Positions 1 through 38,532 of a stretch of DNA of 38,532 nucleotides are shown here, one piece after another (the first letter of the stretch is position 1; every line of letters begins with the position of its first letter). A program made the position numbers and the translations under genes. A model generated the notes under the pieces. That model was not told where the DNA came from and ran no database searches. It was given only the letters and a program-made list of their open reading frames with translations. Source of the stretch: a virus; IMG/VR virus record IMGVR_UViG_3300018412_000005, one strand, 5' to 3'.

Positions 1-123
1 CAGATGGTCAGGGAGAATCACCTGTTTCCACCAGCGGAGCAGAGCGAACCGGACGAGGCGAGCAACGCGGCACCGATGTACCAGGAAGCGTTGCAGATGA
101 AAAGCCGAGTGATGCAGGCCGAC
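1..123. repeat. Terminal direct repeat copy 1 (circular-closure overlap)
   Basis: Bases 1-123 match 38410-38532 base for base. The repeat lies inside an open frame, and the 38409 bp unit is divisible by 3, so the frame is kept across the junction. Confidence 0.9.
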
Positions 124-3100
124 CAGTATCAAGAGGGGATGCAGAATTAATCCAGGCTGAGGAAAAGGCGGCAGAAGAAGCGCCGGCGCCAGTTGGTGAA
201 ACAACTCAGCAGGCAGTTAGTGCAGATAATCGCCCGGCCAAGATGTTTACCATTACGCCAGATATGGGAATTGGTGAAGGTGGCCAGAAAACTAAATTCA
301 AGAACAACCTTGAAGCAATCAAGATCCTGAAGTCTCTTGAGGCTGAAGGACGCCAGGCAACGCCAGAAGAACAGCAAGCGCTTGCGCGTTATGTTGGTTG
401 GGGCGGTATTCCTCAAGCGTTCTATGGTGATGCAGGTAAAGTATCAAAGGGGTGGGAGAAAGAGGCGGCACAGCTTAAAGAGTTGCTTACAGATGCTGAG
501 TATGATGCAGCGCGCCGAAGCACGCAGGATGCCCACTACACAAGCCAGGAGATTGTTACTTCAATCTGGAAGGCTGTTAAGGATATGGGTTTTACTGGTG
601 GCCGAGTGCTTGAGCCTTCAGTTGGTACTGGTAACTTTTTAGGGATGATGCCGGCAGGTGTTCGAGGAAAAAGCCAGATCACCGGCGTAGAGCTTGATCA
701 TATTACAGGCGGGATTGCTTCACACCTTTACCCAGGCGCAAACATTAAAACGCCAATGGGCTTTCAAGACTTCACTATGCCTGATGGTTACTTTGATCTG
801 GCAATAGGGAACCCGCCATTTGGGAGCCAGAAGCTATATGACGGTAAGCGCAAAGACTTATCTAAGTTCAGCATTCACAACTACTTCTTTGCAAAAAGCC
901 TGGATGGCCTGAAGCCTGGCGGCGTACTTGCAATGGTTGTCTCTAACCGCCTTATGGATGGTCAAAGCAATCAGGCAGCGCGTGAGTACATGGCTAATCG
1001 CGCAGACTTCCTTGGTGCGGTCAGGTTGCCTAATAACGCATTCCTAAAGAATGCCGGCACAGAAGTTACCACTGACATTGTTTTCCTTCAGAAGCGAGAG
1101 GAAGGCACGCCGCGTAAAGGTACTTCATGGAAGCGTACTGAATCAGTGAAAGACGCCAACGGCATTGAAACACCACTGAATGAATATTTTGTAAAGAATC
1201 CCGACATGATGCTTGGTGAATGGGGTGCATACGGCTCAATGTATGGACCTAATGACCCGGCGCTTGTTGCGCGTGAAGGTCAGGACACTGGCGCATTGTT
1301 GCGTGAGGCATTGGCTAAGTTACCAAAAGGGATTATGGCAGAGTCAAAAGCGGCGCCGGCAAAAGAAGAAGTGAAGCTATCCACCAGCGTTGATAACGTC
1401 AAAGTTGGTAGCATGTTCATTGATGGCGGCAAGGTGATGGTTCGCCAGGATAATGAGCTTGGTAGTATTCAGGCTGAGCCGGTTGAGTTTGCCAGCGACA
1501 AAGCGCGCCAGCGCGTTGAGGGCATGATCAAGGTTCGTGATGTGTTCACGGACTTGAGGAAGGCCCAGCTTACTGAAGGCGTGAAAGATGCTGCGCTTGA
1601 CGCGTTGCGCACGCGTCTTAATCGTGAGTATGACGCGTTTGTTAAGGCGCATGGTCCAATAAACTCAGATGCCAACAAGCGCTTATTCCGTGATGATCCC
1701 ACCTGGCCGCAGATTGCAGCATTGGAAGAATCATTCGATAAAGGCATTACGCCTGCAATGGCAAAGAAAACCGGCGAGCAATCGCGCAAGCCAAGCGCAA
1801 GCAAGGCTGCAATTTTCTTCAAGCGTACTCAGTCACCATATAAAGCGCCTACCAAAGCGGCAACCGCCAAGGATGCAATGGCGGCAAGTCTTTCAGAGTA
1901 TGGCGCCATTGATATGGATTACATGGCGAAGCTTTACAACAAGACGCCAGGATACATTGCCAATGAGCTTGGTGATCTTGTGTATGAGGTTGAGCCTGGC
2001 CGATTTGAAACGCGTGACCAATACCTTAGCGGCAATGTTAAGCAGAAGCTTGCCCAGGCAAGGCAGCTTGCCAAGGTAGACAGTAAGTACAAGCGCAACG
2101 TGCAAGCGCTTGAGGCGGTCCAGCCTGAAGATATTGAGGCCGTTGACATTGATGTTAAGCCTGGCGCTCACTGGTTGCCGCGTGAAGATATGAAGTCTTT
2201 TGTGGATCATGTGCTTGGCAATGAAAGCGGTAAGGCCGTGTATATTCCGACCAATGCTAAGTGGTCTATTGATGGTGTGCCTACAGAAGCAGCGCGCTCG
2301 CGTTGGGGTACTGACCGCGTGCAGGTGACTGATATTGTGGCAGCAGCTGCAAACCAGAAGCAGATTGTTGTGCGTGATCGCATTGACGAAAACACAACAA
2401 GAGTGAATGAGGCAGCTACCAATGCGGCCAATGAAAAGGTTGAGCGCTTAAAGGCTGAGTTTCGCCGTTGGGTATGGCAGGACGATGCGCGCCGTAGTCG
2501 GTTGACCAGGATTTATAACGACACATTTAACACCGATCGCTTGCGAGAGTTTGACGGTGGCCATCTTACATTCCCTGGCAAAGTAAGTGATGACATTATC
2601 AAGTTGCGCCCACACCAGGCTAATGCAGTTTGGCGTATCGTGCAGTCTGGAACTACCTTACTGGATCACGTTGTTGGTGCCGGCAAGACGTTCACTATGA
2701 TTGCTGGCGCTATGGAAATGCGCCGCATGGGCCGAGCTAAAAAGCCTATGTTTGTTGTTCCTAATCACCTTGTTGGCCAGTGGGCAGAGGACTTTACCAA
2801 GCTTTACCCTGGCGCTAATGTGCTGGCAGCCACCAAGAAGGACTTTGAGAAAGGAAACCGCAAGCGCCTATTTGCGCGCATTGCCACCGGTGATTGGGAT
2901 GCTGTTATTGTCGCTCACTCATCGTTCGGTAAAGTGGAAATGGATAAGGAGTTCCAGGAGCGATTTATCAATCAGCAGATCCGTGACATTGATGAGGCTA
3001 TCCAGAATATCCGGGCCCAGGATGGGCAGAAGTCACGAAGCATTAAGCAGATTGAGAAGCAGAAAGAGCGCCTTCAGGAAAAGCTGAAGAAGCTGTTTGA

Positions 3101-6100
3101 TGCAGAAAACAAGGATGACAACCTAACCTTTGGTGAGCTTGGTGTTGACGCTCTATTCCTGGATGAAGCGCATGAGTTTAAGAACCTTGGCTTTGCCACC
3201 AGCATGACCCGCGTTGCCGGCCTTGGTAATCCGCAAGGCAGCCAGAAGGCGGCAGACCTGTTTATGAAAACTCAGTTTGTCCTGGAAAAGACTGGCGGCA
3301 ATAACGTGGTATTTGCTACCGGTACGCCGATCAGCAATACCATGGCTGAAATGTACACCATGCAGCGTTATCTTGATTACCAGACGCTACAGGACCAGGG
3401 CATTGCACACTTTGACGCATGGGCGCGCATGTATGGCGAGGTTGTTACTGATTGGGAGTTGTCACCTTCAGGCACCTATAAGCTAAACAGCCGCTTCAGT
3501 AAGTTCGTGAATATCCCTGAGCTTATGCAGCGCTACCTATCGTTTGGTGATGTTATCAACCGTGATGACATTAACCGCCAGTTGGCAGCCCAGGGCAAGC
3601 GCCTACCAGTGCCAAAGGTTAAAGGCGGCAAGCCTCAGAATGTTGTGGTTACTCGCAGTGATGATCAGGCCGCTTATATCGGTGAACCTGTCACTGATGA
3701 GAATGGCCGCGAGTCATACCCTGAAGGAAGTCTTGTTTGGCGTGCTGAGCACTTGCCTAAGAAGCCTGAAAAGGGCGCGGATAACATGCTGAAGATTATG
3801 AGTGACGCCAGGAAGGCGGCGCTTGATATGCGCATGATAGACCCGGCCATGTACGGTGACTACGAAGGCAGCAAGGTAAATCAGGCGGCAGACAACATTA
3901 AGCGCATTTACGACCAGTGGAGTACAGACAAAGGCGCGCAGCTGGTATTCATTGATCTGAGCACACCGAAAGGAGCTAAGGCAAAAGAGGCGGCCAGAAT
4001 CCGCGATCTGATTGAAAAAGCAGATAACGGTGATGAGCGTGCCCAGGATGAGCTCGACAAGATGAGCCCTGATGAATTGTCAGCGCTTGACGGTGATTTC
4101 AGTGTTTACGATGACTTGCGCCAAAAGCTGATCAATAAGGGTATTCCTGAGCAGGAAATAGCATTTATTCACGATGCCAATACCGAGCTTCAGAAAGAAG
4201 AATTGTTTGGCAAGGTGCGTAGTGGCCGCATTCGTGTGCTGTTTGGCTCTACCGCAAAGATGGGCGCAGGCATGAACGTCCAAGAGCGCCTAGTTGCTCT
4301 ACACCACATGGATGCACCATGGCGGCCTTCAGACCTTGAGCAGCGTGAAGGCCGTATTATTCGCCAGGGCAACAAGCTGTATGAGCGCGATCCTGATGGG
4401 TTTGAGGTGGAGATTAACCGCTATGCAACCAAGCAAACGCTTGATAGCCGTATGTGGCAGACCATTGAAACCAAGGCGCGATTCATTGAGCAGGTCCGTA
4501 AAGGCAATACAAAGACGCGAGAAATTGAGGACGTTGGCGGTGAAGCAAGTAACGCAGCTGAAATGAAAGCGGCTTCAAGTGGTAATCCTCTTATCCTGGA
4601 AGAAATGGACTTGCGCCAGAAAATCAGAAAGCTTGAACAGCTTGAAGATGAGCATGACCGCGAGCAGTTCCGTATTCGTGACCAGGTGCGCCGCCTGAAG
4701 CTACGCATTGAAACCGGCAAGGATAGAATGCTGAAGTTCACGCGTGACGCAAAACAGGCCGAGAAGGCGCCAAAGGACTTTGCGATCACGATCAACAGCG
4801 GAAAGTACGACAAGCACAAGGAGGCTGGCCAGGCATTGCTGGCGGCAGCAAACAAGATGGCTGATGCAGGCCAGGAAACAAAGGCTATTGGTGAGTATGC
4901 AGGCTTTAAATTGCGCCTGGATAATATCAGTGGTGCTGAGTTCGTGATCACCATAGAGGGTGAGCAGGAATATCAGGTAGACATTCCAGATATTGCTGAA
5001 GCTGATCCTACTGGCTTGGCTATGCGAATCACCAACACAGTGAAGCGCATTAGTGCAGATGCCAAGAATGAAGCAGAGCTTATCAAGCAAGCTGAGCGAG
5101 ATATACCAGACCTTGAAGGGCAAATCGCTGATTGGTCACAGGCTGATGAGCTTGCAAAGGTTAAGGCGCGTCATGCCTTGGTTATTGCTGAGCTAAAGCC
5201 AAAGAACAAGGACCAGGAGGAAATTGAACAGGACGGTACAAGCGCCATGATGTATAACGCCGGTGCCGATGTTCCAATGCCTAACTGGCGTCCAACATAT
5301 CGCCAGGCTGGTGTACCTAAGCGCCCTGAAGGTGATGAGTTTGCTATTGGCGATCGGACTGTGAAGTTAAAGCCAGAGGATCAGCCAACTCGCCGTGAGG
5401 GTGTGCGCGTCATGGTTGAGGATGTTATAGGCCCAAGGCTTTATCAGGGCAAAGTGAAAGGCAAGTCAAAGCTTGGCTTCTACCGTAAGAACAACAGTGA
5501 GGTTCGTGTTGCCAATTATGATGATGTTGAGGTGATGGCCCATGAAATGGCTCACTACCTTGATATGCACTACCGCTACAACAAGCGCTTTACTAGGGCA
5601 TACAAGGACACCAAGTATCGTGATGAGGTTGCCAGCCTGAGCTACACAAGCCAGAAAAACCTGAAGTTTAAGGAAGGCTTTGCTGAATTTGTGCGCCTAT
5701 GGCTTACCAACTATGCAGAGGTAAAAGCGGCGGCGCCATTGTTTACTCAGCGCTTTGAGCAAGTGCTTGCTGAGGATTCAACACTCAACAAGAAAATGGT
5801 TAAGCTGCAGGATGAAATGCACCGGTGGTACCTGCAAGGCGCTCGCGCTCAGTTGCGCGCTAAGTCTGGTAAGGAGTTGAGTCAGTCTCAGCAGATCATT
5901 CAGTACATGCAGTCATACCCACTTGAGCGCTATCGCCAGGAAGTGATTGATAAGATCCATGCTGCAAAGGTGGTTGAGCGCACGCTTCATGGTGAGGTTC
6001 GTGATGCAGCGTTAAGCCCATTTAAGCAGTTCCAGCTTATCAATGGTGCGGAGTCGTTACATGAAGCGATCCTGAAAGATGGCACACCTTCACTTGCTGA

Positions 6101-8558
6101 AGATGGAACCTTTGAGTTTAACGGAAAGGGGCTTAACCAGGTGTTTTGGCCGGTATCAAAACATGGCTGGAAGCGTTTTGACTTGCTTATGGATTACTTC
6201 AAGGCTCGCCGGGCCAATGAGCTTATGAAGCAGGGCCGTGAAAGGCTGTTCACAAAGCAAGAGATTGAGGCCGGTTTAAAGCTTGGTGTTACATACCCTG
6301 AGTTCCGTGATGTGTTTAAGGAATATCAGGAGTTCAACAAGCGAATGCTGGACTTCTACGAGCAGATGGGTCTGATTGATGGGAAGCAGAAGCAAGCCTT
6401 TGCTGATGCCAACAAAAACTATGTTCCATTCCACCGGGTAATAGAACGCCTTGAAGATGGTGATCAGGCTGGAACAACGTCAATCGGCAAGCGCCTAAGT
6501 GGCGGTACTCAGAACGTGCGCGACATTGCTGAAAACATTGTTGAGGGCCTTTACTCAAATATCCGGGCAGCATTGATTGCCAGGGCCAAGCAGACGCTAT
6601 ACCGGGATATTATGACTAGCCAGGATGGATCACTGTTTGCTGTTAAGTTGTCGCCAGATAGCAAGCTGGTTAAGGTCGAGCAAACTCAGATGGCAGCAAA
6701 AATTGCTGAAGCCATGGCTGATGTTGGCCTAACAGTAAGTAAAGATGGAATGATTATGGCCGGCGATCCTGATGCGCAGATCACTGATGTTGATGATATT
6801 GCCCAGGCTCTTGAGTCTAACCCTGATCTGCTTAACTTCTGGACCTTTGGGCACAAGCCAACGACAGCAGAAACATACGTTGATAGCGCCATCATTGATG
6901 GTAAGCGCACCTGGTTTGAGGTTCGCAACCCATTGCTGGTGGACATGCTAACCGGTATGAGAGGGTTCAAGTCTGGCGCGTTGCTTAATGCCATGTTCCG
7001 CGTGAAGAACCTGCAAACTCGCACTGTAACGTCAATGCTTCAGTTCCTTGGTCCAAACGCTGTGCGCGATACGCTTAGCGCCTTTGTGATCAGCAAAAAC
7101 AAGTTCATTCCGGTATGGGACACCTTGATTGGTATGGGGCACGCCATATTCCACACCAAGCTTTACCGTGAGTTTCGTTTGCATGGTGGCGGCTATGGTA
7201 CCCGTATCGAGGCAAGAACAGAGGAAACCAGAAAGCGCCGGCAGCTTGATCTGCCAAGCCGCAATATGTGGGATACCGCAGCCAAGTTTCTGGCTGGCTA
7301 TGACCGCTTTGCTAGTGCATTTGAGTATGGTAGCCGCCTTGGTGATTATCGCCGTGGCCGCCAAGCTGGAAAGAATGCACTTGAGGCTGCATGGGAGGCC
7401 AGGGAAGTTGCAACAGACTTTAGCAAGATGGGGCGCAATGAGTTGTGGGCCAAGTTCCTTCGGACAGTTCCGTTTATGAATGCCGGTATCCAGGGCCTGG
7501 ATAAAACGGCGCGAGAGATATTTGAGTTGCGCGGTGAAATGAAGGGTAGCAACCTGGCAAAACTTGATGATGCGAAGGTGCGATTCCTGGCGGCTGGTGG
7601 CGTGCTTACACTTATGACAGTGATCTTATGGTTGCTGAATGAGGATGATGACCGGTACCAGGCATTGACGCCAGACCAAAAGGCGCGCTTCTGGTGGATC
7701 TTCCTTCCTGGTGCAGAGAAGCCTCTTAAAATTCCGCGTCCATACGATATAGGGCATTTGTTCGCAACCATACCAGAAGTTAGCCTTGACTATATCAAGG
7801 AGCGTGATGGTAAAGAGGCAGCGCAGACGCTGGCGTGGACCTTTGCTAATACGCTTGGCGTTGGCGATTACCCTGGCATATTCCAGCCAATGATTGAGGT
7901 GGCAAGGAATAAGAAGTTTACCGGCTCGCCTATCGTCCCTGAAAGGTTGATGCACGTTCCTAATGAGTATCAATTCACTGATCGCACGCCGCAGCTGTAC
8001 CGCAATCTTGGTGAGGCGCTTGGTGTGTCGCCATTGGTGGCTGAGCATTACATGAAAGGCTACTTGCGTTATGTTGAGGCGTATATCTCAGATGGCAGTG
8101 AAGCCTTGCTGTGGAATGAAAAAGAGTGGGGGGCGCGTCCATTCGTTAAAGAGCCGATTGATTACTTGACCTATCAATTCCAGGGGCAGCGCGTTCCTTA
8201 TCGAACTAAATGGACTGAAGGTTATTTTGAGCTCAAGAAAAAGGCAGCCGGCGCTAAGTCTGCATTTGACCTACTGACCGCACAAGCAATACGCGATCAG
8301 CAGCCAATGAAAGACTTTTCAGCAGACAAAGTTAACCAGTTGCTTATCAGCATGGATAACGCCTTTAGACAGATTGATAGCGCATTCAAGGACCAGGAAA
8401 CGGTTCTTGCAGCAATCAAGTACAACCCGGACCTAACCAGGGATGAGAAGGAAAGGAGAATAGAAAACTGGTACCAGCAGAAGAACAATGCTCTTGCGCA
8501 GTTCTATGAACAGGCCAACAAGGCCCTGGAACAAGTTGAAAGCGCTCTTTCCCAATAG
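1..8558 (+). CDS. Giant polyvalent virion protein, C-terminal 2852 codons (continues from 36003..38409; whole ORF 3654 aa)
   Basis: Frame 3 has no stop from base 3 to the TAG at 8556-8558. The track's ATG at 243 is internal. I translated frame 3 by hand from 36003 to 38532 and from 3 to 243 and found no stop. It carries methyltransferase, SNF2 helicase and HExxH motifs (see sub-features). Confidence 0.85.
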   Translation, partial: DGQGESPVSTSGAERTGRGEQRGTDVPGSVADEKPSDAGRPVSRGDAELIQAEEKAAEEAPAPVGETTQQAVSADNRPAKMFTITPDMGIGEGGQKTKFKNNLEAIKILKSLEAEGRQATPEEQQALARYVGWGGIPQAFYGDAGKVSKGWEKEAAQLKELLTDAEYDAARRSTQDAHYTSQEIVTSIWKAVKDMGFTGGRVLEPSVGTGNFLGMMPAGVRGKSQITGVELDHITGGIASHLYPGANIKTPMGFQDFTMPDGYFDLAIGNPPFGSQKLYDGKRKDLSKFSIHNYFFAKSLDGLKPGGVLAMVVSNRLMDGQSNQAAREYMANRADFLGAVRLPNNAFLKNAGTEVTTDIVFLQKREEGTPRKGTSWKRTESVKDANGIETPLNEYFVKNPDMMLGEWGAYGSMYGPNDPALVAREGQDTGALLREALAKLPKGIMAESKAAPAKEEVKLSTSVDNVKVGSMFIDGGKVMVRQDNELGSIQAEPVEFASDKARQRVEGMIKVRDVFTDLRKAQLTEGVKDAALDALRTRLNREYDAFVKAHGPINSDANKRLFRDDPTWPQIAALEESFDKGITPAMAKKTGEQSRKPSASKAAIFFKRTQSPYKAPTKAATAKDAMAASLSEYGAIDMDYMAKLYNKTPGYIANELGDLVYEVEPGRFETRDQYLSGNVKQKLAQARQLAKVDSKYKRNVQALEAVQPEDIEAVDIDVKPGAHWLPREDMKSFVDHVLGNESGKAVYIPTNAKWSIDGVPTEAARSRWGTDRVQVTDIVAAAANQKQIVVRDRIDENTTRVNEAATNAANEKVERLKAEFRRWVWQDDARRSRLTRIYNDTFNTDRLREFDGGHLTFPGKVSDDIIKLRPHQANAVWRIVQSGTTLLDHVVGAGKTFTMIAGAMEMRRMGRAKKPMFVVPNHLVGQWAEDFTKLYPGANVLAATKKDFEKGNRKRLFARIATGDWDAVIVAHSSFGKVEMDKEFQERFINQQIRDIDEAIQNIRAQDGQKSRSIKQIEKQKERLQEKLKKLFDAENKDDNLTFGELGVDALFLDEAHEFKNLGFATSMTRVAGLGNPQGSQKAADLFMKTQFVLEKTGGNNVVFATGTPISNTMAEMYTMQRYLDYQTLQDQGIAHFDAWARMYGEVVTDWELSPSGTYKLNSRFSKFVNIPELMQRYLSFGDVINRDDINRQLAAQGKRLPVPKVKGGKPQNVVVTRSDDQAAYIGEPVTDENGRESYPEGSLVWRAEHLPKKPEKGADNMLKIMSDARKAALDMRMIDPAMYGDYEGSKVNQAADNIKRIYDQWSTDKGAQLVFIDLSTPKGAKAKEAARIRDLIEKADNGDERAQDELDKMSPDELSALDGDFSVYDDLRQKLINKGIPEQEIAFIHDANTELQKEELFGKVRSGRIRVLFGSTAKMGAGMNVQERLVALHHMDAPWRPSDLEQREGRIIRQGNKLYERDPDGFEVEINRYATKQTLDSRMWQTIETKARFIEQVRKGNTKTREIEDVGGEASNAAEMKAASSGNPLILEEMDLRQKIRKLEQLEDEHDREQFRIRDQVRRLKLRIETGKDRMLKFTRDAKQAEKAPKDFAITINSGKYDKHKEAGQALLAAANKMADAGQETKAIGEYAGFKLRLDNISGAEFVITIEGEQEYQVDIPDIAEADPTGLAMRITNTVKRISADAKNEAELIKQAERDIPDLEGQIADWSQADELAKVKARHALVIAELKPKNKDQEEIEQDGTSAMMYNAGADVPMPNWRPTYRQAGVPKRPEGDEFAIGDRTVKLKPEDQPTRREGVRVMVEDVIGPRLYQGKVKGKSKLGFYRKNNSEVRVANYDDVEVMAHEMAHYLDMHYRYNKRFTRAYKDTKYRDEVASLSYTSQKNLKFKEGFAEFVRLWLTNYAEVKAAAPLFTQRFEQVLAEDSTLNKKMVKLQDEMHRWYLQGARAQLRAKSGKELSQSQQIIQYMQSYPLERYRQEVIDKIHAAKVVERTLHGEVRDAALSPFKQFQLINGAESLHEAILKDGTPSLAEDGTFEFNGKGLNQVFWPVSKHGWKRFDLLMDYFKARRANELMKQGRERLFTKQEIEAGLKLGVTYPEFRDVFKEYQEFNKRMLDFYEQMGLIDGKQKQAFADANKNYVPFHRVIERLEDGDQAGTTSIGKRLSGGTQNVRDIAENIVEGLYSNIRAALIARAKQTLYRDIMTSQDGSLFAVKLSPDSKLVKVEQTQMAAKIAEAMADVGLTVSKDGMIMAGDPDAQITDVDDIAQALESNPDLLNFWTFGHKPTTAETYVDSAIIDGKRTWFEVRNPLLVDMLTGMRGFKSGALLNAMFRVKNLQTRTVTSMLQFLGPNAVRDTLSAFVISKNKFIPVWDTLIGMGHAIFHTKLYREFRLHGGGYGTRIEARTEETRKRRQLDLPSRNMWDTAAKFLAGYDRFASAFEYGSRLGDYRRGRQAGKNALEAAWEAREVATDFSKMGRNELWAKFLRTVPFMNAGIQGLDKTAREIFELRGEMKGSNLAKLDDAKVRFLAAGGVLTLMTVILWLLNEDDDRYQALTPDQKARFWWIFLPGAEKPLKIPRPYDIGHLFATIPEVSLDYIKERDGKEAAQTLAWTFANTLGVGDYPGIFQPMIEVARNKKFTGSPIVPERLMHVPNEYQFTDRTPQLYRNLGEALGVSPLVAEHYMKGYLRYVEAYISDGSEALLWNEKEWGARPFVKEPIDYLTYQFQGQRVPYRTKWTEGYFELKKKAAGAKSAFDLLTAQAIRDQQPMKDFSADKVNQLLISMDNAFRQIDSAFKDQETVLAAIKYNPDLTRDEKERRIENWYQQKNNALAQFYEQANKALEQVESALSQ
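285..1260 (+). other. N6-adenine DNA methyltransferase domain inside the giant ORF
   Basis: AdoMet motif VLEPSVGTGNF lies at nt 606-638 and the catalytic AIGNPPFG has NPPF at nt 810-821. Motif I precedes motif IV. The preceding LARYVGWGG segment is typical of the methylase-helicase fusions of plasmids and phages (the P1 DarB / COG4646 type, from memory). Confidence 0.75.
1600..1638. repeat. 11-bp-phased hexamer array L1 (4 units)
   Basis: ACGCGT at 1600, ACGCGT at 1611, TCGTGA at 1622 and ACGCGT at 1633. Confidence 0.8.
2600..4380 (+). other. SNF2/DEAH-box helicase domain inside the giant ORF
   Basis: Motifs seen: LRPHQ (2604), Walker A GAGKT (2676-2690), DEAH (3162-3173), ATGTPISN, RVLFGSTAKMGAGMNVQ, and motif VI QREGRIIRQG (4341-4370). 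Confidence 0.8.
5541..5555 (+). other. HExxH zinc-metallopeptidase motif (HEMAH) inside the giant ORF
   Basis: The sequence VMAHEMAHYLD is followed about 38 residues later by KEGFAEF, a possible third-ligand Glu as in gluzincins. Confidence 0.55.
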
Positions 8559-8605
8559 GGCGAGAGCGTTATAATGATTAAAGTTGCAAACATAGGAGAA
8601 GAAAG

Positions 8606-11600
8606 ATGGCAACAGCATTAGTGAATCCGAAGTTCCGGGCATGGAACGGAGATAAACCGCTGGCCTTCGGTAAGGTGTACACCTATGCCGCAGGTACCAA
8701 CATTCCAAAACCGACATACACCAGCGAAGATGAAACCGTTGTTAACCCGAACCCGGTCATTCTTAATGCTGAAGGCTATGCCGATATTTATCTTGATGGC
8801 AGCTACAAAGTTGTCGTTAAAGATGAGGATGACGTTGAAGTGTGGACCGCTGATCCAGTTACCGACATTACAACAGTTGGTAATGAGTGGGTGCATCCAA
8901 CGCCGGCAGAGAAGTATGACGTTAACAAGTTTAAGGTCAACGATAACCAGGTTGATCGCTTTCATCCTGGGCGCCGTGTGAAGCTTGATGATACCGGGTA
9001 TCTTTACGGCGATATTGTTCAGTCGTATTACGATGGTCAAGGTTTTACCGTTGTAGAGGTTGTTCTTGATAGTGGCAGCATGACCGCAAACTTGAATCAA
9101 GCTTACGTTGGTATTATTAGCGCGGTAAATGGAGCTCAACCGGCTAACAAATATCTTGAAAACCTACAAGGCGATCAGGGTACCGATTATATCAAGTACG
9201 CTTCAGATAAGACGTTGACTGAAAAGATTGATGAGCAGGATGCTGAAGATCAAAACCTTCAAGATCAGATTGATGTGCACACCACTGCAATTGCCGCAAA
9301 CGCTCAGGATATTGTTGATAATGAAACAGCAAACGCCCAAGAGCACGCGAATATCAATGCTGAGATTATCCAGCTTCAGGGAGCAATAACGTCTGGAAAT
9401 AAACTGACATACCGCACGCGTGCTGATTTGTTTGCTGATTTGGCACACGATGCTGACACAGTTGCAGAGGTTTACCTTGACCCAACAGCAGAATATAACG
9501 GTGTTTATCTTAAAAACGGCGCGTCAGGTACCGGCAGTTGGACAATAGCAAGTTATGACCGATACCAAGAGGCGCTTGCCAACAGCAAGAAAGGTCGATA
9601 CCTGGTGCTTGGTGAATGGTCTAAGTGTGAGCGAGTTGCAGCAAACAACTATTTGCTAAGCAATAACCGCATGTACATTTTGACCGACTCAGGGACCATA
9701 TCAATTGCAACGCAAACTGATGTGACTATCACCAATGGTCAGGTGCTTTATGTTGACCCGGTAAACGGTTCTCAGGATGGTAGCAGCGCTTACATTCCGC
9801 AAATTGCCACAATTGGCACAGGTAATTGGGCGTCAGAAGATAAGTATGTTTTGTTCTCATGTAGCAACGATATTGTTGGTGGGATTATTCCTCCAATTGC
9901 AAACATGAAATCAATAAGTGATCGCTTTGATGTAACAGAGGGACTTGCATCAAGCGGTTACGATAACAGCAGGCGCTCGCGTTACATTGTGCTTGGTGAG
10001 CCAAGCAAGCTTATCCGAAACCCAGCAGATTCTCAGGAGTTGATTGTTAGCTGGGGAGCTATTCGCATAAAAGACACAGCTTCAGGTGGGTTTAAAAAGG
10101 TGCAGCCTGTAACTGATTTGGTTGTGCCTGCTACGGCGGCTTTACTTGTGGATTTTGATGCGGCAACTGATGGGAATGGTGATTTGGTTGTCACGGTGGC
10201 TGACCCCTGGTATTCGCATTCTTCTTACGGAGATCCTACTTTATTTAACAAAATGTTCTTACTTACAAACTATTATGGAACCATAGGTGGGGCCATAAAT
10301 TTTGGTGCTGTAGGTAAGATAGATGGTTCGCGCATATCAAACATTGCCAGGTACCAGCTTCTTGGCGGTCTAACTTCTTATGGCACAGTAACAGATACCG
10401 GAAACACTGTTTCTGTAACCTATCCTGAGCTTCAGCTTTTTATAGGCTCAACAGGTCAAGTGCCGCTTGCAATAAGGTCGCAAACCAACCAGCAAATACC
10501 TATCAATGAGTGCTTGTACGTTGATCTTGATGCTGGCCCTGATGGTGACGGTAAATATACGGCACAAGTAACAAGTGGCGGTTATGTTTCGACTATTGCC
10601 AATGGTACTGGTGCTTTCGTTAAGGATGGCAAATATCCGCTGTTATTTAATGGAAGCAACTCGCTTCGCGGTGGACCTTTGCTTGAAAACTCAAGATTTA
10701 CAGAGGGCTTAGGCGGTTCAATTATTCCATGGGGCAACTGTACTATTACCTTTGATGCGTCAACTCGCACGCTTTCATGGACTGGTGATATTTACTTTCT
10801 TTACCGCGGTGGCAACAGGCTTCGCCTTAATGCTGGTTCATTTACATTCCCAGATGGTAATGATTTGCAGACATGCTATTTATCGTTGAAGGATGTAAAT
10901 GACTGGAATAATGCAACAGCTTCGCTGTGCATTAAGTCTGGTCGGTACTACACAGGAACCGACCGCTATTACGCAAACCCTGATCAAATCCCGCTTTTCT
11001 GGTATTCAGGTGGTAAATATGGGCCAATGTCGGGTTTTCCTCAGCCTGATATTGTTGGTGTTCCACAAGATGGTAATACGGCGCCAGTTGTTGTTGTTGT
11101 CTATGCTCCAACAGCTGACACTCAGCGCATGGATGTTCATATCCGTGATGATGGAAACCCTAATGGCCGTTATATTCGCTGGCGCTTTGAGCGTGTTAAC
11201 AATCCAGGCATTAACTCTGATGTGTGGCATGTTCAGAAGGCATGGGTAGTAAACAACGCGCTTAGCTCAACAATTCTTGAGGTTCTTACGGGCGGTGAAA
11301 TTGAAACGGCAATTAAAGAGTCCGGAAAGGCTGACTTTGTTGGTGGTACCGCTCATGGTGATGAAAAAACATTATCGGTAGTGTTTCACCTGGATGGTGA
11401 AGTGCTAGATCCAGCGGTTGCTGGTGTTTACCAGGGCGAGGGTTTGCGCGTCCAGCAGGTAAGTCAATGCTATGAGGAAGGTACCGGGGCTACCGTAAAC
11501 TGGTTTAAGGCATACAAGTCTTGGCAGTTCGGTCTTAATGGTGTTGAAATTACTCAGCAATCAGAGTTCGAGCGTGATGCTAACATTGACAGCTTCTATA

Positions 11601-11968
11601 ACTGTTTCCTTACTATCGCTCGAAATGAGGATGTAAACAACGAGGCAACAACGTCACAGTATGGTGCTCAATATCCTAAGTATGAGACGGTTGATCTCAT
11701 TCCAAGAAACCATGCTCGCAACTACATTGACAATGTTAAGCGCGCTATAGCTTGGGGCGGCGGCGTGTTCTATGAGGCTGAGTTTATTGAGGGATATAAC
11801 GAGCAGGATCCTGATAATACTGAGTACAGTCCATCTATTAATGAAATGTTCTTCCAGGCAGATTCGAGTGCATACAACAAAATGTACTTCCGTCAGGGGT
11901 TCACTCAGATTCGTACCGGTGCGGTTATTTTCAACAGATACCGATACAAGATAACGAGCTCACTGTAA
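8606..11968 (+). CDS. Tail fibre / tailspike protein (1120 aa)
   Basis: RBS AGGAGA lies upstream. The N-terminus (FRAWNGDKPLAFGKVYTYAAGT...NPNPVILNAEG) resembles the conserved particle-binding N-domain of many podovirus tailspikes. It is followed by a Q/D/A-rich coiled segment and four about 125-aa internal repeats. It is the last gene of the virion module. Confidence 0.75.
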   Translation: MATALVNPKFRAWNGDKPLAFGKVYTYAAGTNIPKPTYTSEDETVVNPNPVILNAEGYADIYLDGSYKVVVKDEDDVEVWTADPVTDITTVGNEWVHPTPAEKYDVNKFKVNDNQVDRFHPGRRVKLDDTGYLYGDIVQSYYDGQGFTVVEVVLDSGSMTANLNQAYVGIISAVNGAQPANKYLENLQGDQGTDYIKYASDKTLTEKIDEQDAEDQNLQDQIDVHTTAIAANAQDIVDNETANAQEHANINAEIIQLQGAITSGNKLTYRTRADLFADLAHDADTVAEVYLDPTAEYNGVYLKNGASGTGSWTIASYDRYQEALANSKKGRYLVLGEWSKCERVAANNYLLSNNRMYILTDSGTISIATQTDVTITNGQVLYVDPVNGSQDGSSAYIPQIATIGTGNWASEDKYVLFSCSNDIVGGIIPPIANMKSISDRFDVTEGLASSGYDNSRRSRYIVLGEPSKLIRNPADSQELIVSWGAIRIKDTASGGFKKVQPVTDLVVPATAALLVDFDAATDGNGDLVVTVADPWYSHSSYGDPTLFNKMFLLTNYYGTIGGAINFGAVGKIDGSRISNIARYQLLGGLTSYGTVTDTGNTVSVTYPELQLFIGSTGQVPLAIRSQTNQQIPINECLYVDLDAGPDGDGKYTAQVTSGGYVSTIANGTGAFVKDGKYPLLFNGSNSLRGGPLLENSRFTEGLGGSIIPWGNCTITFDASTRTLSWTGDIYFLYRGGNRLRLNAGSFTFPDGNDLQTCYLSLKDVNDWNNATASLCIKSGRYYTGTDRYYANPDQIPLFWYSGGKYGPMSGFPQPDIVGVPQDGNTAPVVVVVYAPTADTQRMDVHIRDDGNPNGRYIRWRFERVNNPGINSDVWHVQKAWVVNNALSSTILEVLTGGEIETAIKESGKADFVGGTAHGDEKTLSVVFHLDGEVLDPAVAGVYQGEGLRVQQVSQCYEEGTGATVNWFKAYKSWQFGLNGVEITQQSEFERDANIDSFYNCFLTIARNEDVNNEATTSQYGAQYPKYETVDLIPRNHARNYIDNVKRAIAWGGGVFYEAEFIEGYNEQDPDNTEYSPSINEMFFQADSSAYNKMYFRQGFTQIRTGAVIFNRYRYKITSSL

Positions 11969-11998
11969 TAAAAAAGGCCCTTCGGGGCCTTATTTCAT
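11969..11998. terminator. Bidirectional intrinsic terminator between convergent operons
   Basis: Hairpin AAGGCCC-TTCG-GGGCCTT (11974-11991) has an A-run on one side and a T-rich run on the other. It overlaps the stop codon of the leftward gene. Confidence 0.75.
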
Positions 11999-14476: not shown

Positions 14477-14486
14477 GGGTTTGTCC

Positions 14487-15380: not shown

Positions 15381-15382
15381 GG

Positions 15383-15598
15383 TTATTCCTTGTTGTAGTC
15401 CTGTTCCCCCAATGCAATAAATTCAGATGCAGTGAGCTCAAAGATTGCAGCCAGCTTTTCAATGTTTGCCAGGCTCACCCGTTCAGAGTTCGCAATAGTG
15501 CTGGTGCGCGTGCGGCTTATGCCAAGTTGCTCAGATAGCCAGGTCACGGTCTTACCGCGTTGTGCCAGGGCTACCTTTACTGAGCGGCCAATGTTCAT
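15383..15598 (-). CDS. XRE-family helix-turn-helix regulator (Cro-like)
   Basis: It is 71 aa. The segment VTWLSEQLGISRTRTSTIANSE is a classical HTH. It is the first gene of the leftward operon at the divergent control region. Confidence 0.8.
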   Translation of the reverse strand: MNIGRSVKVALAQRGKTVTWLSEQLGISRTRTSTIANSERVSLANIEKLAAIFELTASEFIALGEQDYNKE

Positions 15599-15673
15599 GT
15601 TCTATTCCTCATTGGTGGTTTTATGATTCGAGTGAATGCTACAACGAGAAATTAAAAAAAGCAAACATTACTA

Positions 15674-18222: not shown

Positions 18223-18228
18223 ACCATA

Positions 18229-33949: not shown

Positions 33950-34443
33950 TGGATGAGTTAACGCCGGCGCAGGTCCACCAGCTATTGGCAGAGCAGGTAA
34001 ACGAAAAAATAGAGGCCATGGAAGAAGTCATGCTCGATCATGAGCAGGTTGAAATGCCAGTAGAGCACCGCTTTGTAAATGGCATGTATGCACGTGAGAT
34101 AACTATTCCAAAAGGCACGCTACTTACAGGGCGCGTTCACAAGTTTGGTTATGTGGATATTATGCTTAGTGGTGATATTACAGTTGCAACGCCTGATGGT
34201 GTAAAGCGTTTAACAGGTGTGAATATCATGGAAGGCGTACCAGGTCGCAAGCGTGCTGGATATGCTCACGAAGATACGCACTGGATCACTGTACATAAAA
34301 CGGATGCCACAAGCCCTGAAGGCATTGAAGATATTTTAACGGTATTCAGCATGGCTCAATTCCGGGAGTTACCGCCTGGCGAGCGTGCAGCGCTACCAAA
34401 CGAACAGGAGAATGAGCCATGTCAGTTGTTGCAGCAGCAGTAG
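33949..34443 (+). CDS. Hypothetical cupin-like beta-barrel protein (164 aa)
   Basis: HRFVNGMYAREITIPKGTLLTGRVHKF...IMLSGDITV resembles a small phage beta-barrel family. The call is weak. Confidence 0.4.
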   Translation: MDELTPAQVHQLLAEQVNEKIEAMEEVMLDHEQVEMPVEHRFVNGMYAREITIPKGTLLTGRVHKFGYVDIMLSGDITVATPDGVKRLTGVNIMEGVPGRKRAGYAHEDTHWITVHKTDATSPEGIEDILTVFSMAQFRELPPGERAALPNEQENEPCQLLQQQ

Positions 34444-35105
34444 TTGGTAGCGCCGTTGTTGGCGCGTATTCAGCAAACAAGTCTAGCAAGGCGGCGTCAA
34501 AGGCGTCACAACAAGCAAGTGATGCTCAAGTGCAAGCTAACCGCGAAACCATTGAGTTTCAGCGAGAGGTTTTTGATCAGCAGCGTGAAGATAACGCCCC
34601 ATGGCGTGAGATTGGTACGCAGGCCCTTGGTCAGCTTCAGGCAGGTATTGCTTCAGGAGAGTTTGACCCAAGCAATTTTAAGTTTGAAGCGGATCCCGGT
34701 TATCAATTCAGGCTGCAAGAAGGTGTTAATGCGCTTGACGCTAGTGCTTCTGCGCGAGGAAAGCTTCAGTCAGGAGCTCAGCAAAAGGCGCTTACCAGAT
34801 TTGGGCAAGATTTTGCCAGCAATGAGTATGCAAATGCCTATGCTCGCAATGCAGGATCTAAGGCCATGAACTTCAACCAGCTTGCATCATTGTCAAATGT
34901 TGGACAGGTAGCAAACCAGGCAGACGCCAATGCGCGAACTAACATGGCTAACAATGTCACTCAGAGTACGATTGCAACTGGCAATGCGCTTGCTCAAAAC
35001 GCCATTAACCAGGGTAACGCACAGTCGCAGGCTTATCAGGGGTATGCCCAGGCAGCAAACCAGGGTATGCAGAACTATCTTCTTTACAGCATGATGGGAG
35101 GTTAA
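34419..35105 (+). CDS. Putative internal virion / ejection protein (228 aa)
   Basis: It has a hydrophobic N-terminus and a DPGYQFRLQEG...ASASARGKLQSG...EYANAY core that I recall as common in podovirus internal proteins. It sits in the P22 gp7/gp14 position. Confidence 0.5.
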   Translation: MSVVAAAVVGSAVVGAYSANKSSKAASKASQQASDAQVQANRETIEFQREVFDQQREDNAPWREIGTQALGQLQAGIASGEFDPSNFKFEADPGYQFRLQEGVNALDASASARGKLQSGAQQKALTRFGQDFASNEYANAYARNAGSKAMNFNQLASLSNVGQVANQADANARTNMANNVTQSTIATGNALAQNAINQGNAQSQAYQGYAQAANQGMQNYLLYSMMGG

Positions 35106-35107: not shown

Positions 35108-35995
35108 ATGGCTAATGCTTTTGGAATTGACTTGGGCCAGGTTTACCGGACCGCAGAGGCAGTTAAGGGTGCGCGTCAGTCTCGCGAGCAGAACGCGTTA
35201 ATGATGGACTGGAAGAAAGAGGACCGCGAGGCAGCGCGCCAGCGAGGTAACGCTCTTGCTGATTTGCGCTCAAAGGCGTCAGCTGGTGATCCTCAGGCTA
35301 TGCAGGAGCTAAACGCTTTTGACCCTGAAGAAGCTAAGAAGATGCTTGAGTCACTAAGTAAGATGGATGATCGCCAGCGCCAGCAGACACAAGAGAACAT
35401 TGATGCGATCGGAAAAATGTCAGCCTATGTTCTTCAGTCTGAAAACCCTGAGCAGGCATACGAGCTTGCCAGGCAAAGCGTATCACCAGAGCTCGCAGCA
35501 AAGATGCCTGAGCAATACGACCCTAACTTCCTTCAAATGCAGCTTGCCAGAGCTCGCCAGGTTGATGAGTTGCTACAGAACCCTGAGCGCATGACGTTTG
35601 GCACAGAGGACCGACTGTATAAGGATGGCCGCGTTATCGAACGTACAACAAGCAGTCAAGAGCTTGACCGCCAGACAAGTCGGCAAAACGCGTTAACGCG
35701 TGCCAGTGGCGATGGCGGTCTAAAGTCAGCTGATGAGTCATTGATGTATCGTCAGGCTGGTGAGTTGCTTGGTGGTTTGTTTGATCAGCAAGGCAACCTT
35801 CAAAACCTTGACCCGGCCACACGCGGCAAGGTCCAGTCTATCGCAACTGAAGCGGCTAAAATTTATAGCCAAGGTGGCGTTACTCGCTCGCAAGCTGTAA
35901 CACAAGCAGCGAGAAAGCTTGGTATTCAGGTTCAAGATTTGGGGCAAAGTGGTAATATAGACCGCAACAAATTACTTGAAATGTATTCACAGTGA
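35108..35995 (+). CDS. Putative internal virion / ejection protein (295 aa)
   Basis: It is Q/R/E-rich and helical, with a GGAGG RBS. It lies directly upstream of the giant ORF in the ejection-protein slot. Confidence 0.45.
   Translation: MANAFGIDLGQVYRTAEAVKGARQSREQNALMMDWKKEDREAARQRGNALADLRSKASAGDPQAMQELNAFDPEEAKKMLESLSKMDDRQRQQTQENIDAIGKMSAYVLQSENPEQAYELARQSVSPELAAKMPEQYDPNFLQMQLARARQVDELLQNPERMTFGTEDRLYKDGRVIERTTSSQELDRQTSRQNALTRASGDGGLKSADESLMYRQAGELLGGLFDQQGNLQNLDPATRGKVQSIATEAAKIYSQGGVTRSQAVTQAARKLGIQVQDLGQSGNIDRNKLLEMYSQ
35171..35198. repeat. 11-bp-phased hexamer array L7 (3 units)
   Basis: GCGCGT at 35171, TCGCGA at 35182 and ACGCGT at 35193. Confidence 0.75.
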
Positions 35996-36002: not shown

Positions 36003-38532
36003 ATGGCAGAGAACCAACAACCTACAAAGGATCAGTTGCTAACAGCACTTGAGAAAGCACACCTTTCAGGGGATACCCAGGGCGCCAAGGAGTTGGCCGC
36101 CTGGCACAATGAGCTTTACGGACCAAAGCAAGAACCAGAGCAGCCTGGACTTATTGACCAGGCTAAGTCTTTTTTCACTTCCGATGAACAGCCTGAAATA
36201 GATGGCTTTACCGGTGCAATGCAGAAGGCACCGCAAGAATACGACAGCTTTGTGACCGCCACCGGGAAAGCTGTTCGCAATGTTCCTGAGCGTTTTCAGC
36301 AATCAGCAGCCGGGCTCATTCAGATGCTTGGCGAGGATATGGGGCAGGAACGTGAGCGCCATATCGCTATTGTTTCTAACCGTCTTGGTATTACGCCAGG
36401 CGATTACAAGTTACTGGCATGGGCAGGCAATGAAGGTCTTGTTGATCCTAAGACGCCTATTCCTGAAGCGCTTGATTACATTAAGCGCAATGTGACTGGC
36501 TCACTTAATGACCAGCAACTGAAGCAAGTTGCAGATATGGGCATTATCAACCCTGATGAGATCGCCGGCTTTGCAAAGTATTGGCGTGAAGAAACTCAGA
36601 AAACCATGGAGCCGGTAAACGCTGAGCCTGGAAGTGCCGCTTATTACGGTAGTGCAGCCATTGGTAGTGTTGCTGAAATGGGGCCTGCATTGCTTGGCAG
36701 TATTCTTACTCGCAATCCAAGTGTAGGTATGCGCCTAATGGCCGGCCAGGTAGGTGGTCAATCTTATGCTGAAGGTCGCGAGCAAGGATTATCGCCTGAT
36801 GAGGCTCAATTCTACGCAGTAGCCAATGCTGCAGCAGAAGCAATCCCTGAGTATATTCCGCTTAGTGTGATTATGAAGCCAGGCCAGAACTTCTTTAAGC
36901 GCGTGCTTAAAGGTGCCTTGGCAGAATCAGCCCAGGAAGTGCTAACCGAGGCCATTCAAACCGGGCTTGATCAGCAGATGATTAACCCGGATATGACTTG
37001 GGCAGAAGCGCGCCAGCGCCTAATTGATGCCGGTATTATCGGTGGTCTTGCTGGTCCAATGATGAGCGGTGTTGCTCATCCAGTCGTTAAGGCACAAGAG
37101 AAGATTGACCAGGCACTTAACGCGCCAGAGCGCCAGCTTGGTATTGCTCTTAATCAGCAGGTTGAGGCAACTCAGTTTGCACCGGCAGAGCAGGCAGCAG
37201 CGCAGGCTTTTGATCCTGCAAATGCACAGCAGCAACAGCAGCCAGCACAGCGTAAGAGCATGGCAGAACTTGTTGCTGAAAAGCTTGAGCAGCGCGGAGT
37301 TAAGCCGGCTCCAGTGGTTGACTACGCACCGAAGCAGCAAGCAATGCCTGAGAATATTGATGTGCCGCTTGAGGTACCTACTCAGGAAGTGGTTGTTGAA
37401 GAACAAGCTAAGGAGCAGGTCAAAGATGAGCCCAAGCAAGAAGCGCCAACTGAAGAACAAGCGAAAGATGAAGCACAACCAACGGATGCGGCGCCAGTCT
37501 ATGGCGAAGGCGTTGAGAGAGTTCAGCACACAACCAAGCGTGGAAAGGAATTAACTGGCGTCATTGATCGTGAAATGACGCTGGATCAAGCCAAAGAGAT
37601 TGACCCTTATGCCTTCAAAAAGGATGGGGGTGTTTTCATTCGTGATAACCGCATTCAGGAGTACAACCAGAATCGGAGTGAAGAAAATGCAAGAGTGGAT
37701 ACAGCAGGCGTTGAACGACAAGGTGATCAGCAGCAGCGAAGCCAAGAGCCTGGACGAGTACCTGAGCCAGCACAGCAACAGCAGCAACCTAGTGATATTG
37801 CCTCAGAGCCTGGAAAGCGCGGCTCAGAGAATATTCCTGTGGCAGACACCGCAGAGCGAATTGACGATGCACTGACACCTAAAGCTGAGTGGCGAAACGA
37901 TTTAATGAAGGCGCGAGATTATGCCAACAAGTTGCGCCAAGCAGGAAAGCTTGATGGTGATGCGGCTCGCCAAGTGTGGAATGACGCGGAAGCGTTAACC
38001 AATTTAATTGACTATGCCACTTTGACGCCAGAGCAGCGCCAGGTGCGCAGAGATATTGAAGGGCGTATTAACAATGTTGCCAGTGAACCAGGTGCGGAAA
38101 ACCGACAGTCAAAGGGTATGGCCGCTCAGCGAGTCATTGAGCGATCTGATTTACCAGAGTCGCAAAAGCAAAAGCTACTTACCGATTTACAAGCAGCCTG
38201 GCAACCAGAGCAAGCACAGGAGCAAACCAATGAACCTACAGAATTGGATCAGCCAAGCCAAGAAGCACTGGCAGGAGTTCCAGCCGAGCAAGTACCAGGC
38301 GCTGAAGAAACAGGGGGCGCTGGACTTAGCCCTGAAGCAAGCGGCAGAGCAGACGCTGGCCGAGGTGAGCGAATTGGAGAGCCAGGGGTATCAACCGGAC
38401 GAGGCGTTTCAGATGGTCAGGGAGAATCACCTGTTTCCACCAGCGGAGCAGAGCGAACCGGACGAGGCGAGCAACGCGGCACCGATGTACCAGGAAGCGT
38501 TGCAGATGAAAAGCCGAGTGATGCAGGCCGAC
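36003..38532 (+). CDS. Giant polyvalent virion protein, N-terminal part (runs off the window end; continues at base 124)
   Basis: The ATG at 36003 lies 5 nt after a GAGG RBS. My hand translation of frame 3 shows no stop to 38532. It has Gly/Ala-rich hydrophobic segments (AAYYGSAAIGSVAEMGPALLGSIL, LIDAGIIGGLAGPMMSGV), then Q/E/P-rich linkers separating small folded islands. Confidence 0.8.
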   Translation, partial: MAENQQPTKDQLLTALEKAHLSGDTQGAKELAAWHNELYGPKQEPEQPGLIDQAKSFFTSDEQPEIDGFTGAMQKAPQEYDSFVTATGKAVRNVPERFQQSAAGLIQMLGEDMGQERERHIAIVSNRLGITPGDYKLLAWAGNEGLVDPKTPIPEALDYIKRNVTGSLNDQQLKQVADMGIINPDEIAGFAKYWREETQKTMEPVNAEPGSAAYYGSAAIGSVAEMGPALLGSILTRNPSVGMRLMAGQVGGQSYAEGREQGLSPDEAQFYAVANAAAEAIPEYIPLSVIMKPGQNFFKRVLKGALAESAQEVLTEAIQTGLDQQMINPDMTWAEARQRLIDAGIIGGLAGPMMSGVAHPVVKAQEKIDQALNAPERQLGIALNQQVEATQFAPAEQAAAQAFDPANAQQQQQPAQRKSMAELVAEKLEQRGVKPAPVVDYAPKQQAMPENIDVPLEVPTQEVVVEEQAKEQVKDEPKQEAPTEEQAKDEAQPTDAAPVYGEGVERVQHTTKRGKELTGVIDREMTLDQAKEIDPYAFKKDGGVFIRDNRIQEYNQNRSEENARVDTAGVERQGDQQQRSQEPGRVPEPAQQQQQPSDIASEPGKRGSENIPVADTAERIDDALTPKAEWRNDLMKARDYANKLRQAGKLDGDAARQVWNDAEALTNLIDYATLTPEQRQVRRDIEGRINNVASEPGAENRQSKGMAAQRVIERSDLPESQKQKLLTDLQAAWQPEQAQEQTNEPTELDQPSQEALAGVPAEQVPGAEETGGAGLSPEASGRADAGRGERIGEPGVSTGRGVSDGQGESPVSTSGAERTGRGEQRGTDVPGSVADEKPSDAGR
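38410..38532. repeat. Terminal direct repeat copy 2 (circular-closure overlap)
   Basis: It is identical to bases 1-123. Confidence 0.9.

Follow-up and report, generated by a model that had tools for sequence, protein, structure and literature searches.

In phage P1, the head protein DarB shields DNA in cis from type I restriction enzymes (summarised in PMC5512222), and the "methylase-helicase dyad" of polyvalent proteins has been described by Iyer et al. (2017; PMC5512222). Giant DarB-like proteins are encoded by podophages with genomes of ~60 kb (Pavtok gp27, Bcep22 gp75, JC1 gp69, Itty13, LASTA and PBC5), and gp01 of Vibrio phage VvAW1 (YP_007518343; NC_020488), identified as a DNA methylase of COG4646 in the 2012 genome paper (E 8e-65; PMC3558961), bears the RefSeq product name "DarB-like antirestriction". 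Here we describe the corresponding giant gene of IMG/VR virus record IMGVR_UViG_3300018412_000005, analysed as a stretch of 38,532 nucleotides (nt; the window). Its product of 3,654 amino acids (aa) is read, with a probability of about 60%, as a virion-packaged polyvalent ejection protein in which a delivery scaffold carries a DarB-type cargo that would act against restriction in cis.

The preliminary description of this DNA regarded the fusion of a DarB-like core to an ejection-type N-terminus in a small P22-like phage as unusual. The existing annotation of VvAW1 gp01 and the published giant DarB-like virion proteins of podophages (Bcep22/JC1, Pavtok) contradict this. The gene type is already recognised and annotated, and the protein is a well-supported member of it, not a new kind of anti-restriction device.

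One gene across the contig ends

In the program-made list of open reading frames (ORFs), the giant gene appears as a frame of 2,771 codons at 243-8558, cut to its first in-frame ATG (243) because the window is a circular or permuted contig with a 123-nt assembly overlap. The first 123 nt of the window are repeated exactly and directly as its last 123 (1-123 and 38410-38532), and without this overlap the genome measures 38,409 bp. Translated across the junction, a single frame stays open from an ATG at 36003 to 38409 and then from position 1 to the stop codon at 8558; its product of 3,654 aa (408 kDa) accounts for 28.5% of the genome, against 22.1% for the giant protein of JC1 (PMC9144972).

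The ATG at 36003 is preceded by GAGG. An internal start at ATG 243 was considered and rejected, since no Shine-Dalgarno sequence precedes it and the frame extends, open and conserved, farther upstream. A genuine duplication of 41 aa at the junction was likewise rejected, since it corresponds to the 123-nt contig overlap and is present in single copy in VvAW1. The join across the window ends is confirmed by VvAW1 gp01 (3,640 aa), the same gene at the same genome position, which aligns with the giant protein from end to end at 93.7% amino-acid identity (BLASTP). At the DNA level the window is 89% identical to VvAW1 across the giant gene and most of the genome; the exceptions include a segment at aa 625-738 and the neighbouring tail-fibre gene, both of which are unrelated to their VvAW1 counterparts.

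The stretch 243-4500 flagged in the preliminary description is the middle of this one 3,654-codon gene. The motifs and domains assigned to it do lie inside, but 243 is not the start of the gene, which runs from 36003 to 38409 and from 1 to 8558, and the cassette common to other phages (aa 743-2540, or window positions 38229-38409 and 1-5213) is slightly wider.

A methylase-helicase core of the P1 DarB type

The motifs from which a gamma-order adenine methylase and an SNF2/DEAH helicase had been proposed are all present at the places given for them and in one reading frame: EPSVGTGNF (612-638), NPPF (810-821), GAGKT (2676-2690), DEAH (3162-3173) and QREGRIIRQG (4341-4370), with TGTP (3318-3329) in the same frame. 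The set is far beyond chance. Motif I (aa 1007-1015) stands ahead of motif IV (NPPF, aa 1073-1076) by 57 residues, which is the gamma order. Pfam scans confirm both enzymes in the order methylase then helicase, with matches to Eco57I methylase (2.8e-11; 44.3 bits, cut-off 25.3), ResIII (9.2e-11), SNF2-rel_dom (2.8e-07) and Helicase_C (4.4e-06); these, together with a match to LPD38 farther downstream, all exceed the curated cut-offs.

The proposed likeness to DarB holds up both in profile searches (PHROG 10089, "DarB-like antirestriction"; E=0, 2631 bits) and in direct comparison with P1 DarB (AAQ14093; 2,255 aa), which BLASTP aligns in three colinear segments covering the methylase (31% identity, 1.7e-24, DarB aa 91-275), the helicase N-lobe (24%, 2e-17, DarB 770-1147) and the helicase C-lobe (24%, 1e-7, DarB 1461-1564). 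This similarity of 24-31% is confined to the enzymatic cores, and P1 DarB differs in belonging to a myovirus and in being a stand-alone protein without an LPD38 scaffold. These matches identify the core as being of the P1 DarB type, with a gamma-class N6-adenine methyltransferase ahead of an SNF2-like helicase. Both enzymes are under strong purifying selection relative to VvAW1, with ratios of nonsynonymous to synonymous substitution (dN/dS) of 0.014 (methylase) and 0.008 (helicase) at a synonymous divergence (dS) of 0.5-0.8; across all folded modules of the giant protein the ratio lies between 0.008 and 0.04.

The pairing of the two enzymes in phages and plasmids, which the preliminary description had pointed out, is borne out by matches of the cassette to 156 phage records and to 2,120 plasmid records, 722 of them conjugative. 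Its identity is 60-67% to the ~60-kb podophages Pavtok, Itty13, LASTA, PBC5 and Mwe-JY07, and 37% to Bcep22-like and Ralstonia phages. The helical lead-in to the methylase resembles LPD36 in a by-eye comparison with the published description of that domain (PMC5512222). Assignment of the core to DISARM, MADS or type II/IIG systems was rejected, as NCBIfam and PADLOC scans gave generic methylase/helicase resemblance far below the family cut-offs.

Scaffold and cargo

Because some relatives share only the outer modules of the giant protein and Pavtok gp27 only its cassette, the protein is best described as an N-module (aa 1-625) and a C-module (aa 2562-3654) that together form a scaffold, with a cargo of ~1,900 aa (~626-2561) inserted between them. 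Similarity to Pavtok gp27 (5,007 aa) is limited to aa 743-2540, where identity is 61%, and extends to neither of the two modules. Giants of the Pavtok/Bcep22 type resemble the giant protein in being cysteine-free, encoded by a late gene and equipped with the methylase-helicase cassette; they differ in carrying an N-terminal lytic transglycosylase and other domains absent here, and in genomes of ~60 kb as opposed to 38.4 kb.

Conversely, gp14 of Vibrio phage 1.211.A (2,715 aa) shares only aa 62-493 and aa 2561-3646. It occupies the same slot in a phage of 37 kb, in which the portal, the coat and the genes nearby show 48-61% identity to those here, and it has no helicase but a small MTS-type methylase instead. 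Its N-module identity is 31%, against 53% for P0008 (1,774 aa), in which aa 1-620 correspond to the N-module and are joined almost directly to the C-module; the P0008 gene lies in the same slot, between a 298-aa gene and a NosD beta-helix tailspike. PTXU04_00025 also carries both scaffold modules. These three proteins and phi24B gp47 are alike in having the N-module, the C-module or both, in their slot at the end of the virion block and in containing no cysteine; they differ from the giant protein in having no SNF2 helicase and in bearing other cargo (a small MTS-type methylase, LPD1/LPD5) or none. The term "embedded", used for the core in the preliminary description, is thus literally true, since in relatives the two flanking modules occur with no such core between them.

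The different cargo in the same scaffold of 1.211.A (12708-20855), and of a second 37-kb phage, 1.183.O (13398-21518), comprises ~1,100 aa, mostly without a recognisable domain, and ends in a small MTS-type methyltransferase.

The absence of a helicase from close relatives also bears on another reading of the core, in which an SNF2-like translocase, tethered to the envelope conduit by the scaffold, would pull the genome into the cytoplasm with ATP, methylation being secondary or occurring as the DNA goes through. Transcription-driven genome entry in T7 and N4 offers a parallel. In favour of this reading, SNF2 enzymes move along duplex DNA and leave its strands paired (PMC5512222), membrane-type helices are present in the scaffold, constraint on the protein is strongest in the helicase (dN/dS 0.008), and N4 and DEV inject a giant enzyme, similarly laid out as N-region, enzyme and C-region with a zinc motif, that helps bring DNA in (PMC11445570). 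However, P0008, 1.211.A gp14 and PTXU04_00025 share the scaffold and virion genes without the helicase, and DNA entry in this lineage therefore cannot depend on a translocase; a methylase as partner, moreover, is the signature of DarB. We consider such a motor quite unlikely.

A search with aa 2562-3654 returned 53 proteins, mostly of 1,600-1,900 aa on contigs of 36-40 kb, whose N-terminal parts bear cargo as varied as ADP-ribosyltransferase (ART), GGDEF, RadC and InPase; one GGDEF-bearing member is encoded downstream of P22-type coat and stabilisation genes. As some cargos on this scaffold (ART, GGDEF, RelA/SpoT) are host-directed enzymes, the core could itself be an effector against host DNA or against defences other than type I restriction. 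BREX-, DISARM- and MADS-type systems use related methylases and SNF2 helicases, and a resemblance of the helicase C-lobe to DISARM DrmD, and of the methylase to MADS Mad2, emerges from NCBIfam and PADLOC scans. These matches reach 30-49 bits against cut-offs of 610-1100, however, and reflect shared folds only, while P1 DarB, the one homologue that has been characterised by experiment, guards phage DNA against type I enzymes; a role as effector is accordingly judged improbable.

The N-module is modelled by AlphaFold2 as all-helical (pLDDT 82.6) and contains two Gly/Ala-rich hydrophobic helices (36654-36710 and 37020-37076). A word-indexed protein search with it gave one protein, and an exhaustive search of representative proteins revealed the family, with 991 matches at E<=1e-3 and 385 at E<=1e-10. 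Among the best 150 of these 991, about three quarters are 1,600-5,400 aa long, the rest being mostly short and probably contig-truncated records, and in all 150 the domain lies within the first ~750 residues; one metagenomic fragment has it preceded by a lytic transglycosylase domain. The N-module has no Pfam or NCBIfam match, nor does its AlphaFold2 model match the PDB (Foldseek, E<=0.001); the best non-significant Foldseek matches there are membrane helix bundles, which were not counted as evidence.

The C-module contains a zincin-like HEMAH motif (5541-5555) and, downstream of it, EGFAEF (5673-5690). The HExxH and the downstream ExxxE (E-G-F-A-E) are kept in 45-46 of 51 C-module homologues, and this conservation supports a putative zincin peptidase, although Pfam MPTase-PolyVal reaches only 12.8 bits (E 0.13) against a cut-off of 27.5 and Foldseek matches to zincins are weak. 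One strong membrane helix is predicted at 7584-7640 (hydropathy peak 1.97), followed by LPD38 at 7647-8147 (Pfam 1e-39; 137 bits, cut-off 27). The AlphaFold2 model of the C-module (pLDDT 87.5, pTM 0.83) matches 65 viral models at E<=1e-3 in Foldseek along ~1,000 residues, including the PTXU04 and Ralstonia phage Alix proteins. No solved structure matched the C-module at E<=0.001, either by Foldseek of the model against the PDB or by profile search, and phmmer of the 2,771-aa part against solved structures gave nothing at the same threshold. In this dissection, LPD38 is only a part of a 1,100-aa module without a solved counterpart, an observation that may be modestly new.

The suggestion that the protein is polyvalent fits LPD38 and the conserved HExxH. 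With a methylase, a helicase, LPD38, two unassigned modules and a late or virion-gene context, the giant protein is classed as polyvalent in the sense of Iyer et al. (2017).

Between the N-module and the cargo lies a small variable hinge. Its amino-acid identity to VvAW1 is 28%, with flanks above 95%, and blastn finds no match to VvAW1 over 37874-38216. The linker that follows (aa 739-883) has a dN/dS of 0.72 and a dS of 0.15, against a dS of 0.5-0.9 elsewhere. Because aa 625-738 are unrelated to VvAW1 and dS in the adjoining linker is unusually low, these differences suggest recurrent, recent recombination at this point.

Probable packaging and ejection

The phage, a VvAW1-like Vibrio phage, is small and P22-like in its head genes, as the preliminary description had held, since its portal and coat proteins match the P22 portal (Pfam 1.5e-197) and coat (6e-40) families and the gene order from portal to head-closure protein agrees with P22. 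The giant gene lies between gp7- and gp20-like genes and the tail fibre, which is the slot of P22 gp16. Like the giant protein, P22 gp16 (PF26808) follows gp7 and gp20, precedes the tailspike and contains no cysteine, although no homology between the two was detected. A second parallel without detected homology is the virion RNA polymerase of N4, gp50, a cysteine-free injected enzyme of 3,500 aa with an HExxH motif, in which the enzyme core is flanked by terminal regions on both sides. Both likenesses would be ones of working mode and position, not of family membership.

Composition points in the same direction as position. There are no cysteines in the 3,654 residues of the giant protein, in the 3,640 of VvAW1 gp01, in the 5,007 of Pavtok gp27 or in the 228-aa and 295-aa proteins encoded just upstream of the giant gene, and 50 pooled C-module homologues contain 3 in 78,006 aa. 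In the same phage, cysteine makes up 1.27% of the non-structural ORFs, 1.48% of the large terminase (8/540) and 0-0.87% of the other virion proteins (portal, coat, head-completion, tail proteins and tail fibre); the scaffolding protein and two small ORFs of the virion block also have none, and most other proteins have 0.4-1.5%. P22 gp7, gp20 and gp16 and N4 gp50-52 are without cysteine as well, and suppression of cysteine was described in the study of phage DEV as a conserved mark of ejection proteins that cross the periplasm (PMC11445570).

Data on relatives add to this picture. JC1 gp69, which is DarB-like, was found by mass spectrometry in CsCl-purified virions (PMC9144972), and Pavtok gp27 has been listed as a putative ejection protein by Casjens and colleagues (PMC8402733). 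In phi24B, the LPD38 protein gp47 occurs in abundance in the virions and has been put forward as an ejection protein, and PTXU04_00025 is needed for efficient infection. The giant protein is thus probably injected with the DNA, its packaging and ejection being suggested by gene position, the absence of cysteine, the hydrophobic helices and the proteomics and essentiality of its relatives. The ejection-type N-terminus of the preliminary description stands on these circumstantial grounds, but comparison with known ejection proteins gives the N-terminus no match.

Homology of the scaffold to P22 gp16 is unsupported: BLASTP gives an E-value of 9.7, Pfam scans show no PF26808 match, and hhalign against 120 gp16 homologues yields probabilities of at most 0.3% (N-module 0.3%, C-module 0.1%), with the proviso that the gp16 alignment is of low diversity (Neff 1.7), so that very remote kinship could escape. 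A hidden Markov model of the N-module finds no match to P22 gp7, gp20 or gp16 at E<=10. Homology to N4 gp50, gp51 or gp52 is also unsupported, as the N-module against gp50 gives E 3 for the whole sequence, and the nominal E-values for the others (N-module against gp52, E=0.004 at 4.4 bits, and gp51, E=0.48; C-module against gp51, E 0.013), which come with near-zero bit scores in a three-sequence search, are not meaningful. The flanking regions against N4 gp50 give E>0.4 in hmmsearch and less than 1% in hhalign against a single target sequence. With no homology detected to known ejection proteins or structures, the ejection role is argued from position and composition.

A separate observation on the N-module is that aa ~255-320 (36765-36960) resemble N4 gp50 aa ~325-404 in a short motif, YxxxxxG(L/M)SP(D/E)(E/Q)A ... 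E-E/G-x-Q; with an hhalign probability below 1% against a single target sequence, it is an unproven lead.

It is also conceivable that the protein is not delivered at all, and that it or a processed fragment methylates progeny genomes late in the producing cell, as orphan methyltransferases do, the role of the scaffold being structural and unrelated. The gene is a late one, whose product appears when there is progeny DNA in the cell; no other methyltransferase is annotated in VvAW1, and related Vibrio phages have separate Dam and C5 methylases in their early regions. The cassette itself is cysteine-free, however, both here and in Pavtok gp27 (0 in 5,007 aa), which argues that the cargo too crosses the periplasm. 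The cargo is, in addition, covalently embedded between the scaffold modules, and DarB-like giants are present in JC1 virions. On balance, late methylation in the producing cell is unlikely to be what the protein is for.

A proposed route of protection

As a delivered anti-restriction protein, the giant protein would be packed in a few copies into the procapsid, along with the cysteine-free products of the two small genes that precede its own. On infection, these proteins would be expelled through the tail in an at least partly unfolded state and traverse the periplasm, and the total lack of cysteine would be explained by this passage. The scaffold may contribute to the envelope conduit or dock on it. 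The methylase-helicase, possibly freed by the zincin peptidase, would then load on the entering phage DNA and guard it in cis against host restriction, ahead of all phage gene expression, either by adenine methylation while translocating or by blocking translocating type I/III enzymes. Packaging, ejection, proteolytic processing and anti-restriction activity are all inferred, and it is P1 DarB that suggests action in cis on the entering DNA.

Several points weigh against this proposal. The scaffold is without detectable homology to P22 gp16, N4 gp50 or any solved structure, and the MPTase-PolyVal match is below threshold (E 0.13). We know of no DarB-type protein for which methyltransferase activity has been shown. 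P1 DarB has 9 cysteines and its packaging needs DarA, Hdf and DdrA, none of which appears in the VvAW1 annotation, though no search specific to them was made; the mechanism of P1 DarB is itself stated to be undefined (PMC11109961). Furthermore, a methylase made late could also act on progeny genomes ahead of their packaging, and there would then be no need for protection in cis.

A more far-reaching variant would see in the scaffold a widespread ejection platform that accepts cargo at the hinge (~aa 625-740), with the genome threaded, in this phage, through a translocase-methylase that stays tethered to the envelope conduit and couples ATP-driven import to methylation. We regard this combination as doubtful. 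If it were true, enzymes of any kind might likewise be delivered with phage DNA by way of the hinge.

Neighbouring genes and feature coordinates

The coordinates of the giant gene, its modules and its neighbours are collected in Table 1. The 228-aa protein is close in length to P22 gp7 (229 aa), and the gene for the 295-aa protein ends 7 nt upstream of the giant gene. In phage PTXU04 (7251-15426, genes 00023-00025), the gene for the 2,197-aa LPD38 protein follows those for two proteins without cysteine, of 228 and 284 aa, close in size to the upstream pair here, with no BLAST similarity between the two pairs at E<=0.01. The upstream pair and the giant protein, as in PTXU04, may form a conserved three-gene ejection set diverged beyond recognition.

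The tail-fibre gene (1,120 aa; 8576-11969) has no DNA similarity to VvAW1, and its flanks are 89-90% identical; the difference looks like a swapped host-recognition module. Further short blocks without a VvAW1 match lie at 12916-13443, 18977-19445, 21072-21482, 22585-23001, 31622-31893 and 32896-33144, in the early region and at two virion-gene junctions, and look like small accessory-gene replacements. A tRNA scan found no tRNA.

Table 1. Position of the giant gene's modules and of adjoining features in the window.
Feature	Position	Strand	Basis
N-module, aa 1-625, with the true gene start	36003..37877	+	ATG with GAGG upstream; predicted all-alpha
Small variable hinge module, aa 625-738	37875..38216	+	Not homologous to VvAW1 counterpart
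Low-complexity linker, part 1	38217..38409	+	Frame open over window junction
Low-complexity linker, part 2, to aa 883	1..242	+	In frame with 36003-38409
Lead-in and predicted gamma-class N6-adenine methyltransferase, aa 884-1250	243..1343	+	Eco57I; P1 DarB match; GxGG and TP motifs in the helical lead-in
Region between methylase and helicase, aa 1251-1650	1344..2543	+	Inside the 61%-identical block shared with Pavtok gp27; dN/dS 0.037
Predicted SNF2-like superfamily-2 helicase/translocase, aa 1651-2320	2544..4553	+	ResIII, SNF2-rel_dom, Helicase_C; P1 DarB; dN/dS 0.008
Coiled-coil and small domain, aa 2321-2561, end of cargo	4554..5276	+	Pavtok-shared block ends at aa 2540; 1.211.A C-module homology begins at aa 2561
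C-module, aa 2562-3654, including stop codon	5277..8558	+	Homologues, zincin motif, membrane helix, LPD38
Tail fibre or tailspike gene	8606..11968	+	Weak PHROG tail-fibre matches; directly downstream of giant gene
228-aa cysteine-free protein, P22 gp7 position, probable ejection protein	34419..35105	+	PHROG 598 "DNA ejection" 1.5e-57; best P22 match gp7, E 0.09
295-aa cysteine-free protein, P22 gp20 position	35108..35995	+	Best P22 match gp20, E 0.11; 48% identical to 1.211.A gp13
Terminal overlap	38410..38532		Exact copy of 1-123; VvAW1 has the encoded 41 aa once

Implications for podophage entry

What may be modestly new in this protein is the explicit dissection into scaffold and cargo with a defined hinge, together with the 28.5% of a small genome that is devoted to it. 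The P1 system is complex, with many accessory Dar proteins, and here the same enzyme pair is found in a 38.4-kb genome that has natural cargo-free relatives. Replacement of the giant protein by a cargo-free one of the P0008 kind is predicted to leave the phage viable but restriction-sensitive. The C-module, in turn, is confidently modelled, unlike any solved structure and, in PTXU04 at least, probably required for infection, and it would therefore be a reasonable structural target for learning how podophages inject very large proteins.

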